A stretch of 64,000 nucleotides of DNA from Escherichia coli (GTDB lineage Bacteria > Pseudomonadota > Gammaproteobacteria > Enterobacterales > Enterobacteriaceae): assembly GCF_030013595.1 (NCBI RefSeq), contig NZ_CP122768.1, one strand, 5' to 3'. Shown piece by piece: positions 30,236-43,072 of the stretch (the stretch's first letter is position 1; each line of letters starts with the position of its first letter). The position numbers and the translations under genes were made by a program. The notes under the pieces were generated by a model. It was not told the origin of the DNA and ran no database searches. It saw only the letters and a program-made list of their open reading frames with translations.

Positions 30236-30252
30236 TGGCAAAAGGCGTGCCA
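30236..30252 (-). promoter_or_regulatory. sigma-54 promoter core (-24/-12) for the lafB operon
   Basis: Minus strand reads TGGCACGCCTTTTGCCA = TGGCAC-N5-TTGC, placing the predicted start site ~15-20 nt before the lafB ATG (30205). Confidence 0.65.
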
Positions 30253-30387
30253 ATATTTTTTATGTGAATAATCAATAGATTGAAAAACAGGCGGAAATGG
30301 TGTTTCCGGTCTGGCGGAAAAAAGCCTGCCGCTGAAAGCACAACACCGCCTGCAGGCGGTGTTGAGACTGATGACAAACGCAACACT

Positions 30388-30488
30388 GCCTGATGCGCTG
30401 CGCTTATCAGGCCTACAAGGTTTCTGCAATATATTGAATTTGCAGTATTTTGTAGGCCGGATAAGGCGTTTACGCCGCATCCGGCAAG
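30388..30488. repeat. BIME: two REP palindromes in opposite orientation between lafB and lafA
   Basis: gcctgatgcgctgcgcttatcaggcctaca and gtaggccggataaggcgtttacgccgcatccggcaag are classic E. coli REP sequences. Confidence 0.8.
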
Positions 30489-30495
30489 TCCGCCA

Positions 30496-31410
30496 TTACT
30501 GCAGCAGGCTGGAAACCATGCTGGACATGCTGTTGGACTGTTTCAGCATGGTGATGCCGGTCTGCATCAGCACCTGCTGTTTGGTCATGTTGGACGCTTC
30601 CGTCGCGTAGTCGGTATCCATGATGTTACCGATAGCAACTTCGGTGTTGTCCTGCATGCTGGTCAGGTTATTAGCCGTGTCGTTCAGACGGTTGATAGAC
30701 GCACCCAGTTTGGACTGGATCTGAGACACGTCATCCATCGCGGTAGAGATGCTGGTGATCATCTGGTTAGCCGAGCCAGACGCAGTCAGCTCAGTACCGC
30801 CAGAAACGCCTGCGGTGCCCGTGGTGTCAGCCTGATCCGCACTAAAGGAGTTGCTGATAGCAGAAAGATCAGTCACCAGGGTATTCAGCTGGCTTGAAAT
30901 ATTCACGGTCATGGTGTCGGAAGATTCCGCGCCCACCTGGAAAGTTACCGCGCTCTGGAACAGACCGTCAGTACCGGTGTTGCTGGTGCCGGAAACACCG
31001 AACAGGTTGGTGCCGCCGTAAGTGGTGTTTTGCAGCATGTCAGACATCTGCTGGCCCAGTTCGTCGTATTCGTCCTGCATCGCCTGCAGGTCGTCGTCGC
31101 TGTAGGTGCCGTTCGCTGCCTGAGTTGACAGGTCTTTCATACGACCCAGCACGTCAGACATTTCGTCGAACATGCTGTCAGCGGTTTGCAGCATCGCGGT
31201 GGCATCATTGATGTTGCTCAGCGCAACACCCATACCGCTGGACTGTGCTGTCAGACGGTTAGCAATTTGTTTGCCTGCGGCGTCATCGGCAGAAGAGTTA
31301 ATCCGGTTACCCGTTGCCAGGCGTTCCATAGATGTAGACAGAGAAGAGCTGCTTTTGCTGATTGCATTAACGGCGGCCATTGAGGCGTTATTGGTGTTAA
31401 TAGATAACAT
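30496..31410 (-). CDS. lafA: lateral flagellin
   Basis: ORF trimmed to MLSINTNNASMAAVNAISKSSSSLSTSMERLATGNRINSSADDAAGKQIANRL... (flagellin N-terminus) with C-terminal ...QTGITMLKQSNSMSSMVSSLLQ; AAGGA 8 nt upstream of ATG 31410. Confidence 0.9.
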   Translation of the reverse strand: MLSINTNNASMAAVNAISKSSSSLSTSMERLATGNRINSSADDAAGKQIANRLTAQSSGMGVALSNINDATAMLQTADSMFDEMSDVLGRMKDLSTQAANGTYSDDDLQAMQDEYDELGQQMSDMLQNTTYGGTNLFGVSGTSNTGTDGLFQSAVTFQVGAESSDTMTVNISSQLNTLVTDLSAISNSFSADQADTTGTAGVSGGTELTASGSANQMITSISTAMDDVSQIQSKLGASINRLNDTANNLTSMQDNTEVAIGNIMDTDYATEASNMTKQQVLMQTGITMLKQSNSMSSMVSSLLQ

Positions 31411-31455
31411 GATACTGCTCCTTGGGATTAATCGTTTTCGTTTCGATACCCTGTA

Positions 31456-31482
31456 AAAACGACACCTCGGGAGCAAACTTAA
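31456..31482 (-). promoter_or_regulatory. candidate sigma-28-type promoter for lafA (weak -10)
   Basis: Minus strand TTAAGTTT-N11-GTCGTTTT versus consensus TAAAGTTT-N11-GCCGATAA; -35 7/8, -10 only 4/8. Confidence 0.3.
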
Positions 31483-31843
31483 AACCGCTATGAAAAAAAT
31501 TCGCTACGTATTATCCGATGCCACTTTTAGCTAAAAAAAGCAGAGTTTAAATTCAGATAAAAAGATTATTAGCAATATCTGCCACATGGCCAGGTATCAA
31601 AATATGTCTTAATCAAACGCTTGATATAGTTAAGATTGTCATCAATTATCGCGTTTTGTTCTCAATGTACTGATGCCAAAATTTACATTGCGTTGCAAAT
31701 AGCACACATTTGGCTATTGTACCTGTCCTGTCATTTCGTTACATTTCCACGCCATATAGTGATTAAGAATAATCCTATTACCGTAAAATATTAATTATCA
31801 CGCAGAAAAATCATCTTCTCAGGGACGTATAAGACTGTGCTTT

Positions 31844-41441: not shown

Positions 41442-41524
41442 TGCCGGATGCGGCGAACGCCTTATCCGGCCTACAAAACCATGCAGTTTCATGTAGGCCT
41501 GATAAGCGAAGCGCATCAGGCAAT
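41442..41524. repeat. BIME (paired REP elements) between lfgE and lfgD
   Basis: ttgccggatgcggcgaacgccttatccggcctaca ... tgtaggcctgataagcgaagcgcatcaggca. Confidence 0.8.
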
Positions 41525-41537
41525 TTGGCACCGGACA

Positions 41538-42251
41538 TCACGCCACATCACTGTCGGCATCGGGTACGCCAAACTGGCTAATCATGGTGAACGGCACTTC
41601 GCCCACGCCTGCAACATTGAGCACCGGAGAGCCGCCGTCGAGCGGGATGCGTACATCTTCCACTTCGCCGGAAACTTCAATCGGCACCTCTTCTTCCCCG
41701 GTGTTGGTCACCACCGAGACGTCGTAATCACCCGGCGGGATACCGTAATCCGCCGGATTAATCGAGAAATCCACCTGGCCTGGCCCGACGGACGAACTGC
41801 CTTCCGGGATCAGCGACACCGTATAGTCATCGCCTGCGGCATCGGTAAAGTGGAGATCGGCGGTGGTACAGGCGTCGTCAAGCGTGGCGCGACCATTAAT
41901 GGTCTGGTCGCTCACCTGCAAGGCGGTGGTCTGCACCATAATGTCGTCACCCACCAGGTTGCCGAGCGCCATTACCTGAATGTTGCTCATCAGCACCGCG
42001 TTGGTGTTGGCCTGCACGCTCATCTCTTCCATCATCGCCACCTGCGCCATCGACGAAAGCTGGTCGATGTATTCGGTGGCGTCAGTCGGGTCGGTCGGGT
42101 CCTGGTTTTGGATCTCGGCGACAAACAGCGTCAGGAAGGTATCGACGGGCGAGCTATCGCTGCTGCTTGTCGTGTCGCTGGCCGCCACGTTGTTGCTTTC
42201 CGCCGTGGCGGTCGGCTGCGGCGATTGCGCATTCAGCACCAAGGTATTCAT
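41538..42251 (-). CDS. lfgD: FlgD-like hook capping/scaffold protein
   Basis: 237 aa with FlgD-like N-terminus ...VDTFLTLFVAEIQNQDPTDPTDATEYIDQL. Confidence 0.8.
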   Translation of the reverse strand: MNTLVLNAQSPQPTATAESNNVAASDTTSSSDSSPVDTFLTLFVAEIQNQDPTDPTDATEYIDQLSSMAQVAMMEEMSVQANTNAVLMSNIQVMALGNLVGDDIMVQTTALQVSDQTINGRATLDDACTTADLHFTDAAGDDYTVSLIPEGSSSVGPGQVDFSINPADYGIPPGDYDVSVVTNTGEEEVPIEVSGEVEDVRIPLDGGSPVLNVAGVGEVPFTMISQFGVPDADSDVA

Positions 42252-42682
42252 CAGGCTTCTCCCAGTTTCAGCAAACTTTGCTGCATACTTTTCACGTTGT
42301 TGAGCACATCGACATTGGTTTCGAAATCGCGCGAGGCCGACATCATGTCCGCCATCTGTTCCACCACGTTGACGTCGGGATACCAGACATCCCCGTTAGC
42401 ATCCGCCAGCGGCGAATGCGGTTCATAGCGTTTCACCGCCCCGCCGGTTTGCAGCACGTCCTGCACCTGCACGCTGGCACCATCGATCGCATGGCGATGC
42501 GTTCCCGCCAGCAAGCTGTGGTGATACACCGCCGCAAACACCGGGCTGCGCGCTTTATACGCCTGTGCCTCGCTGCCGGCAGGTGCATTGGCATTCGCCA
42601 GGTTACTGGCAACGGTATTCAGACGTAGCGTTTGCGCCGTCATCGCCGAACCGGAAATCTGATAGATATCAGTAAATGACAT
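42251..42682 (-). CDS. lfgC: FlgC-like rod protein
   Basis: 143 aa, MSFTDIYQISGSAMTAQTLRLNTVASNLANANA... Confidence 0.88.
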   Translation of the reverse strand: MSFTDIYQISGSAMTAQTLRLNTVASNLANANAPAGSEAQAYKARSPVFAAVYHHSLLAGTHRHAIDGASVQVQDVLQTGGAVKRYEPHSPLADANGDVWYPDVNVVEQMADMMSASRDFETNVDVLNNVKSMQQSLLKLGEA

Positions 42683-42684
42683 GC

Positions 42685-43020
42685 TTATTTCCCTTCAATG
42701 GCCTCTCTGATGCCGCTGATTTGCAGATTCAGAAAGGTCAGACTGCTTTGATAATCCATACTATTTTGTGAAAACCGCGCCTGTTCACTGTTCAGCTCCA
42801 CGGTGTTGCCATCTTCCGACGGCTGCATCGGCACGCGGTACTGGACATCCACCGCCGCGTTATTTGCCCGTTGCATCTCCCTGGCAAAATCAATATCTTT
42901 AGCCTTGAAATTTGGCGTATCGACGTTCGCCAGATTCGCAGTCAGTAGCTCGGTCCTCTCAAGACGTAACTTCACTGCCTGCGGATGCACTCCCAATGCT
43001 TGTTGAAAACTGATCCCCAT
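42685..43020 (-). CDS. lfgB: FlgB-like rod protein (start moved downstream of the sigma-54 promoter)
   Basis: MGISFQQALGVHPQAVKLRLERTELLTANLANVDTPNFKAKDIDF... FlgB-like; the upstream ATG at 43050 lies inside the predicted promoter-to-start-site interval, so ATG 43020 (GGAG upstream) is preferred. Confidence 0.75.
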   Translation of the reverse strand: MGISFQQALGVHPQAVKLRLERTELLTANLANVDTPNFKAKDIDFAREMQRANNAAVDVQYRVPMQPSEDGNTVELNSEQARFSQNSMDYQSSLTFLNLQISGIREAIEGK

Positions 43021-43056
43021 TCTCTGCGTCACTCCTGCTTCAATCCGCATACGCTA

Positions 43057-43072
43057 AGCAATCGCTGTGCCA
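43057..43072 (-). promoter_or_regulatory. sigma-54 promoter core (-24/-12) for the lfgB rod/hook operon
   Basis: Minus strand reads TGGCACAGCGATTGCT = TGGCAC-N5-TTGC, ~35 nt upstream of the lfgB start. Confidence 0.7.

Follow-up and report, generated by a model that had tools for sequence, protein, structure and literature searches.

The stretch of Escherichia coli DNA analysed here, 64,000 nucleotides of contig NZ_CP122768.1 (the window), is an intact and complete Escherichia Flag-2 (lateral-type) flagellar locus, as read from its open reading frame (ORF) map and from the RefSeq annotation of a near-identical strain. We consider it likely that two elements of this locus, one before lafB and one before lfgB, are genuine, conserved class II sigma-54 promoters of the Flag-2 operons, each with an upstream palindrome that is read by the activator LafK. 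An earlier note on this DNA had placed TGGCAC-N5-TTGC on the coding strand just upstream of lafB and lfgB. Both elements were found, and they are the only matches to this motif (TGGCACNNNNNTTGC) in the 64 kb, both on the minus (coding) strand. The spans that it gave, 30236-30252 and 43057-43072, mark the right sites and are 1-2 nt too wide (30238-30252 and 43058-43072).

The core of the lafBCDEFSTU operon, TGGCACGCCTTTTGC (30252..30238, minus strand), lies 32 nt before the lafB ATG at 30205, and that of the lfgBCDEFGHIJ operon, TGGCACAGCGATTGC (43072..43058, minus strand), lies 37 nt before the lfgB ATG at 43020. Both are intergenic, on the coding strand and ahead of operon-first genes. Their GG and GC doublets are exactly 10 nt apart, which is the exact -24/-12 geometry of a sigma-54 promoter. 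With the C of GC taken as -12 and the start placed 12 nt after it, C(-12) falls at 30238 and 43058, predicted transcription starts fall at ~30226 and ~43046, and the leaders would be ~21 and ~26 nt long. Both leaders hold a Shine-Dalgarno sequence, GGAG 6 nt before the lafB ATG and AGGAG before that of lfgB. A weighted scan of all GG-N10-GC sites of the window ranks the two cores first and second, with 27/28 each. Their count alone is only mildly unusual, with 0.30 matches expected per window and at least two obtained in 3 of 100 shuffles; it is the position of the two matches, not their number, that makes them significant. The lafB core is itself an imperfect palindrome, TGGCA-N7-TGCCA, with a T-run after it on the plus strand, and a terminator scan flagged it on the opposite strand; no gene enters from that side.

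The third-best GG-N10-GC site of the window is CGGCACGCTTATTGCA (47729-47744, plus strand), in which a C replaces the T before GG. It occupies part of the 128 nt that follow lfgN and precedes the lafV ATG (47779) by 36 nt, with a predicted start at ~47755 and a GGAAG Shine-Dalgarno sequence in its leader. The distance from C(-12) to the ATG is 36 nt here, 33 nt at lafB and 38 nt at lfgB. The three best sites of the window are the two perfect cores and this one, whose only mismatch is in the flank. This third promoter is predicted to drive lafV, encoding a FliB-like lysine-N-methylase, together with the GT2 glycosyltransferase gene of variable region 1. The earlier inventory of promoters was right about the two perfect sites and overlooked both the third promoter, with its one mismatch, and the upstream palindromes.

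We examined conservation of these elements by searching with the LfgI protein against one genome per species. The search yielded 74 loci, 30 of which are Flag-2 loci of Enterobacterales from about 10 genera (Escherichia, Pseudocitrobacter, Citrobacter, Phytobacter, Enterobacter, Leminorella, Rahnella, Rosenbergiella and Tatumella). TGGCAY-N5-TTGCW precedes lfgB in all 27 lfgB-containing loci, 33-47 nt from the start codon. Likewise, an equivalent element lies 31-82 nt upstream of lafB in 25 of the 25 loci that reach this gene; only 24 of these are labelled, as lafB runs off the end of L002. Immediately after lfgN, 19 of 27 loci have kept the third element; the other 8 have no such module there. 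A promoter site was counted as conserved at a score of at least 26/28, and equal-scoring sites elsewhere in the ~600 kb of these loci number ~14 and are scattered within genes. In an element-anchored alignment of 24-25 distinct orthologous sequences, TGGCA and the TGC of TTGC are 100% conserved, whereas spacer columns are 20-58% and flanks ~35-65% conserved. Invariant cores within diverged flanks indicate purifying selection on a presumably functional site, and together with the exact geometry they bear out the earlier reading of the elements as sigma-54 promoters. A word-indexed homologue search with LfgB gave only Enterobacterales among the matches listed.

When the lfgB promoters of 14 genera were aligned, cGGAAA-N5-TTTCCg emerged as another invariant block, placed upstream of -24. 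In the window, perfect copies of GGAAA-N5-TTTCC lie 40 nt upstream of the -24 element of lafB (GGAAATGGTGTTTCC, 30293..30307) and 40 nt upstream of the third promoter (GGAAACGGATTTTCC, 47674..47688). The lfgB copy (GGAAGTTTTATTTCC, 43124..43138) has one mismatch, lies 51 nt upstream of -24, one helical turn more than the 40 nt elsewhere, and falls inside codons 8-13 of lfgA. GGAAANNNNNTTTCC has only two perfect copies in the 64 kb, each exactly 40 nt from a sigma-54 core (lafB and lafV), and all three palindromes continue with TTCCGCCTG on the promoter side. A second, weaker palindrome at lafB (GGAAAAAAGCCTGCC, 30316..30330, 2 mismatches) lies further upstream, 23 bp from the first, centre to centre; the Escherichia/Pseudocitrobacter group and a single Citrobacter locus (L008) likewise have a copy at its 63-nt offset.

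The palindrome accompanies the promoters beyond the window. A copy with at most two mismatches was found upstream of every conserved promoter of the other loci. At lfgB it is 51-53 nt away, except in Rahnella (55 nt) and in both Rosenbergiella and Tatumella (61 nt); at lafB the distance is 39-45 nt, and in the 19 loci with the third promoter it is 40-41 or 49-51 nt there. Moreover, of the 36 perfect copies in the ~600 kb of Enterobacterales loci, 30 have a sigma-54 site 25-75 nt away; copies with at most one mismatch have a background of 0.0245 per 146 nt. At lfgB, GGAA...TTCC is invariant in the 14 aligned genera, while the LfgA N-terminus that it encodes is otherwise not conserved. The central N5 shows random bases, and no covariation was seen between positions 5 and 11 (A/T 20, G/T 12, A/C 11, G/C 11), indicating that the constraint is on half-site sequence and not on RNA pairing, as expected for the half-sites of a protein. 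The 5-N5-5 layout fits sites of dimeric Fis-type helix-turn-helix (HTH) domains, such as those of NtrC. The palindrome is probably the enhancer, or upstream activating sequence (UAS), of LafK and is treated here as a candidate. Within lfgG (38906-38969), a weak GG-N10-GC site on the coding strand, CGGCACGGTGACGGCG, is preceded at 33 nt by a palindrome with one mismatch, GGAACGTCGATTTCC, and other genera have this pair at the equivalent position of lfgG. We rejected it as a real promoter, conservation of FlgG coding being the simplest explanation; it could be an internal promoter for lfgHIJ.

Sites resembling those of integration host factor (IHF) accompany the palindromes. Between palindrome and promoter at lafB lies AATCAATAGATTG (30270..30282, plus strand), a perfect match to WATCAANNNNTTR. 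At the same offset, 8 of the 25 loci carry a perfect core and 14 of the 25 a core with at most one mismatch, against backgrounds of 0.6% and 4.2%, respectively, per 55-nt window. The core at the third promoter, AAACAAAGGATTG (47699..47711, minus strand), has one mismatch and the same offset as that of the lafB promoter. At lfgB, a TCAR-N4-TTA block, CATCAGTCACTTA (43078..43090, minus strand), abuts the -24 element and is a weak IHF-like match with 2 mismatches. This block is found at the same offset in most loci, with at most one mismatch in 14 of 27.

LafK is encoded by lafK (57388..58374, minus strand), an intact gene for a sigma-54 enhancer-binding protein of 328 amino acids. The protein has a Walker A motif, a Sigma54_activat domain (E = 7e-64), the GAFTGA loop, an AAA lid and a C-terminal HTH_8 domain. 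Nothing lies N-terminal of the AAA+ domain, neither a receiver nor a sensory domain, and LafK has been grouped with PspF and HrpR/S as type Ic, activators that lack a sensory domain (Francke et al., PMC3162934). The presence of LafK in the window and the behaviour of the orthologous Vibrio and Aeromonas promoters agree with the suggestion in the earlier note that transcription is LafK-dependent. For Escherichia, we infer the dependence on RpoN, LafK and IHF as well as the start sites; the rpoN gene itself is not part of the window.

In the mechanism that we propose, sigma-54 RNA polymerase would occupy GG(-24)/GC(-12) as a closed complex that cannot open unaided. LafK, made in the same locus from a sigma-54-independent promoter and devoid of a sensory domain, would bind GGAAR-N5-YTTCC as a dimer or oligomer, centred ~74 bp (lafB, lafV) or ~85 bp (lfgB) upstream of the start. 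The AT-rich IHF-like site between palindrome and promoter would bend the DNA, so that the AAA+ ring of LafK could touch sigma-54 through its GAFTGA loop and open the promoter with ATP. The transcript from ~43046 would then supply lfgBCDEFGHIJ (rod, hook and rings of the hook-basal body), that from ~30226 lafBCDEFSTU (filament cap, chaperones, hook-length control, the sigma-28 factor LafS and stators), and that from ~47755 lafV and the glycosyltransferase, for flagellin modification. LafS would next read a sigma-28-type motif before lafA, lfgMN and lfgKL, the class III operons.

The distribution of elements over the remaining operons is compatible with such a hierarchy. As stated in the earlier note, no comparable element precedes lfiM or lafK: the divergent region between them (58375..58746, 372 nt) holds no sigma-54 core and no palindrome, and its best GG-N10-GC site scores only 21/28. 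Both cluster-1 operons are thus predicted to be LafK-independent (class I), which fits the class I scheme of Aeromonas hydrophila. A simple scan of this region for sigma-70 promoters and terminators found nothing. A scan for the canonical FliA promoter (TAAAGTTT-N11-GCCGATAA) gave no intergenic match upstream of any Flag-2 operon head, and a canonical sigma-28 promoter was rejected for the other Flag-2 operons on these grounds. Alignment of upstream regions revealed instead a variant, TTAAGwwT-N13/14-YCGYTTTTA, conserved in all aligned genera before lafA (31454-31482, minus strand), lfgK (36137-36167, minus strand) and lfgM (46868-46897, plus strand). Its -10 part differs from the canonical FliA sequence GCCGATAA, and it is probably a class III promoter specific for LafS.

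The lateral system of Vibrio parahaemolyticus has a -24/-12 element at the same two operon heads, flgB_L (VPA0264) and lafB/fliD_L (VPA1550), both class II, and a LafK that likewise lacks a receiver domain. RpoN sites were predicted there before flgB2 (ATGGCACGTATCTTGTTTG) and lafB (TAGGCACGTATCTTGCGAT), RpoN bound the flgB2 fragment in an electrophoretic mobility shift assay (EMSA), and expression of lafK, motY and fliMN also decreased in an rpoN mutant (PMC9817140). The window, in contrast, has no sigma-54 element before lafK or lfiM, and its cores are nearer to consensus than those of Vibrio (lfgB -12 TTGC versus TTGT). Dependence on these factors is supported by experiment in Vibrio, whereas in the window it is predicted from the DNA sequence.

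An exact search of metagenome contigs with the V. parahaemolyticus flgB2 19-mer gave five matches. One of them, L086, is a genuine Vibrio-type lateral flgBCDEFGHIJKL cluster with the gene order of the window from flgB to flgL and 38-61% protein identity to it. Its flgB promoter, TGGCACGTATCTTGTT (the RpoN site of PMC9817140), has GGAAGTTTGGCTTCC (GGAAG-N5-CTTCC) 41 nt upstream of the core, and this is the only GGAA-N7-TTCC in the 12.5 kb of L086. The other four (L082-L085) show neither an adjoining lateral flgB context nor a palindrome next to the match and look fortuitous. Representative FlgB searches toward Vibrio and Aeromonas returned mostly other flagellar systems that lack the module. 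Only L078, whose LfgB is 57% identical, had the core and palindrome pair; a sigma-54 core is missing from L076, L079 and L080 and occurs without the palindrome in L077 and L081. Parazoarcus (L037) and Pseudomonas otitidis (L036) carry a core with the palindrome farther off, at 108 and 77 nt. On balance, we lean towards GGAAR-N5-YTTCC, centred ~74/85 bp upstream and combined with an IHF-like bend site, being the LafK recognition site from Vibrio to Enterobacterales and defining a three-operon regulon in Escherichia.

In A. hydrophila, activity of PflgB(L) fell from 970 to 20 Miller units (MU) in a lafK mutant, and a PfliM fusion also fell, from 247 to 22 MU (PMC5013049). That fliM_L is labelled class I goes back to Wilhelms et al. 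2013, whose scheme is outlined in PMC4481668 and PMC5013049. According to the account of the Vibrio and Aeromonas lateral hierarchies in the review PMC4481668, the A. hydrophila system has three tiers: fliM_L-flhA_L and lafK-fliJ_L are class I, flgB_L is class II, and lafA is class III through the lateral sigma-28 factor. The window matches these tiers in the distribution of elements, having none before lafK and lfiM, sigma-54 elements before lfgB and lafB, and sigma-28-like elements before lafA, lfgM and lfgK. As to Yersinia pseudotuberculosis, Flag-2 genes are absent from the main text of an RpoN chromatin immunoprecipitation sequencing (ChIP-seq) paper.

Class II promoters under FleQ (Pseudomonas) or FlrA (Vibrio polar flagella) are similar in having sigma-54 elements before flagellar structural operons and an NtrC-family AAA+ activator with HTH_8. 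Unlike LafK, FleQ and FlrA possess an N-terminal FleQ domain and respond to cyclic di-GMP, and the FleQ box, GTCaNTAAATTGAC, is unrelated to GGAAA-N5-TTTCC. The psp operon of E. coli also provides a parallel: its activator PspF consists of AAA+ and HTH domains only and has upstream palindromic sites, with an IHF-like site before the -24/-12 element. The two activators differ in target genes and in site sequences. Furthermore, PspF is under control of the anti-activator PspA, whereas no such partner is evident for LafK.

Several observations weigh against the interpretation given here and have to be set beside the rival explanations. The V. parahaemolyticus lafB fragment gave no RpoN shift in EMSA (PMC9817140). 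The compared loci are related by descent, and the counts above are not independent events. The distance of the enhancer (centre at about -74 to -85) is among the shorter ones for activators of this class. At lfgB, the palindrome is in lfgA codons for a signal-peptide-like R-K-F-Y-F-L, where coding bias could aid its conservation. Just past lafA, the lafB palindrome and its GC flanks fold into an 8-bp hairpin (-12.2 kcal/mol) with a T-run behind it, and this palindrome may also, or instead, terminate lafA transcription. We infer, moreover, that LafK is the protein that binds the palindrome. Finally, Flag-2 is often regarded as cryptic in E. coli, and the literature consulted reports neither transcripts nor protein binding for a promoter of Escherichia Flag-2. 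A chance origin of the matches, with the operons transcribed from sigma-70 or sigma-28 promoters in the manner of the primary, FlhDC-controlled flagella of E. coli, would agree with the mild count, with one-mismatch look-alikes inside genes (e.g., lfgK, lafS and lfiF) and with the lack of the element in the nearest beta-proteobacterial flgB clusters (most of L031-L045). It is nevertheless extremely improbable: the element has the same position in every Enterobacterales Flag-2 locus, with GG and GC invariant amid drifting spacer and flanks; every core has the same palindrome at a set distance from it; the orthologous promoters are RpoN- and LafK-dependent in Vibrio and Aeromonas; and a sigma-70 scan of 30200-30520 gave one weak match only (9/12), which overlaps the lafB start codon.

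The promoters could be real and the palindrome no LafK site, serving rather as a terminator hairpin of lafA and lfgN or as a site for another protein (LafZ or a host factor), with LafK acting from solution or from elsewhere. We regard this as unlikely, albeit a serious alternative. Two of the three window copies are just downstream of a co-directional gene (lafA, lfgN), the lafB copy looks like a terminator, FlgR and CtcC work without DNA binding (cited in PMC3162934), and a literature search for a LafK binding site or UAS found no LafK recognition sequence. But the lfgB copy belongs to the 5' end of lfgA, a divergent gene, and a terminator would be pointless there, the T-run is present at the lafB copy only, and half-site sequence is conserved rather than mere complementarity. 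Given the location of the lfgB copy and the lack of covariation, we discarded the view that the palindrome is nothing but an RNA terminator; at lafB it may serve both purposes. Its distance to -24 is fixed at 40 or 51 nt, one helical turn apart, LafK has retained HTH_8, and Rosenbergiella and Tatumella carry palindromes though no lafZ was detected in range. That the promoters are intact relics of a silent locus, kept by recent descent or horizontal transfer, seems rather improbable to us. Flag-2 has been described as non-functional in several E. coli and Yersinia strains, lafV is apparently frameshifted, a restriction-modification cassette sits between lfgA and lfgM, and the lafK-lfiM region has no recognisable sigma-70 promoter. 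However, the structural genes, lafK and lafS are all intact ORFs, flanks are near random between genera while the cores are invariant, 1279 of 5426 complete E. coli genomes (about a quarter) keep the lfgB module at 90% identity or more, and the gene set is complete in 461 of 592 Enterobacterales Flag-2 loci. Conserved sigma-54 promoters, probably read by LafK, are the explanation that we prefer.

The promoter also bears on the start codon of lfgB. The longest ORF, of 121 amino acids, opens with an in-frame ATG at 43048..43050 (minus strand), which the earlier note placed within the interval between promoter and start site, proposing 43020 as the real start. This ATG falls at about -4 to -2 of the predicted transcript start (~43046), has no Shine-Dalgarno sequence and has no counterpart in Citrobacter or remoter genera, and we rejected it for these reasons. 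A transcript from ~43046 would therefore be translated from the ATG at 43018..43020 (minus strand; MGISF...), which has AGGAG 11 nt upstream. Three further results support this start: it is annotated by the Prokaryotic Genome Annotation Pipeline (PGAP) in a 99.9% identical strain; the main public LfgB cluster, of 111 amino acids and with 629 member sequences, uses it; and tblastn alignments start at residue 1 (MGIS...) in 45 of the 46 loci with an lfgB match, all Enterobacterales included. Current annotation already matches the 43020 start. On the other side of the promoter, the lfgA start codon is only 29 nt (within 43073-43104) from the -24 element of lfgB, so that the lfgA promoter must overlap the lfgB promoter or sit inside lfgB. 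A conserved TTTAAGTG, read on the strand of lfgA, is similar to the LafS-type motif in its -35 part; a transcript from it would be nearly leaderless.

The third promoter would tie cargo genes to the same control. The methylase was named LafV by De Maayer et al. (PMC6993521), according to whom variable region 1 encodes flagellin modification enzymes. The motif suggests that flagellin-modifying cargo genes are co-regulated with synthesis of the hook-basal body and filament cap. If this is true, horizontally acquired methylation and glycosylation cargo of variable region 1 has been wired in by a resident enhancer-promoter module after lfgN. In the window, the lafV ORF (47779-48709) has only 276 amino acids and no Pfam hit, and PGAP marks a frameshift in the 99.9% identical strain; lafV, the first gene of the third operon, may be a pseudogene here.

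Sigma-54/LafK control of the flgB_L and fliD_L/lafB operons is already established in Vibrio and Aeromonas, and finding Escherichia Flag-2 wired like their lateral flagella is expected; the Escherichia sigma-54 sites may have been noted earlier in Ren et al. 2005. What may be new is the conserved palindrome, its phasing and the third promoter tying variable-region cargo to the hierarchy. Our analysis adds exact coordinates, namely predicted starts at ~30226, 43046 and 47755, a corrected lfgB start codon and a candidate LafK operator. These could be used for switching on or reporting Flag-2 in about a quarter of complete E. coli genomes, and the operator motif would offer a simple means to predict LafK targets in any genome.

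A comparison of the 16 kb around the feature with complete E. coli genomes identified E. coli HCP5S3_I2 as the nearest chromosome (99.9% identity), and 1258 complete genomes hold at least 80% of this neighbourhood. According to the ORF map and PGAP annotation, lafU to lafB occupy 24087-30205 (minus strand). The operon is headed by lafB (28889..30205, minus strand), encoding the FliD-type filament cap, and runs through lafC, lafD, lafE, lafF, lafS (sigma-28), lafT and lafU to 24087 with gaps of at most 22 nt. Next come lafA and lafW, on the minus strand between lafB and lfgL, and then lfgL to lfgB (33786-43020, minus strand), from which lfgA diverges. Past lfgA the order is a restriction-modification pair, lfgMN, the variable region (FliB-like methylase and glycosyltransferase), and lfiJ to lfiE with lafK (51912-58374, minus strand); lfiM to lfhA follow on the plus strand.

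The insertion between lfgA and lfgM (44027-46744) consists of a DNA cytosine methyltransferase gene (plus strand) and a type II restriction endonuclease gene (minus strand). It splits cluster 2 and leaves the promoters untouched; an EcoRII/Dcm pair was reported in the Flag-2 loci of 21 Escherichia strains (De Maayer et al., PMC6993521). Beside it, upstream of lfgM (46798-46830), are ~3.5 tandem copies of the 9-mer GAACGACCA. BoxC-like repeats, ccctcaccctaaccctctcccc...ggggcgagggga, fill unusually long gaps between lfgJ and lfgK (36200-36310) and in the lafK-lfiM spacer (58520-58570). Palindromes resembling repetitive extragenic palindromic (REP) sequences or bacterial interspersed mosaic elements (BIME) lie downstream of lafA (30380-30490). 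LafW (32792-33769) bears the PGAP product name 'flagellar biosynthesis protein FlhF', has no Pfam hit and is a putative hook-associated protein in the literature, and its RefSeq product name looks wrong. In LfgI, the window matches Escherichia whittamii (L002) at 100% identity and Pseudocitrobacter species (L003/L004) at 99%, which suggests recent exchange of Flag-2 segments between genera.

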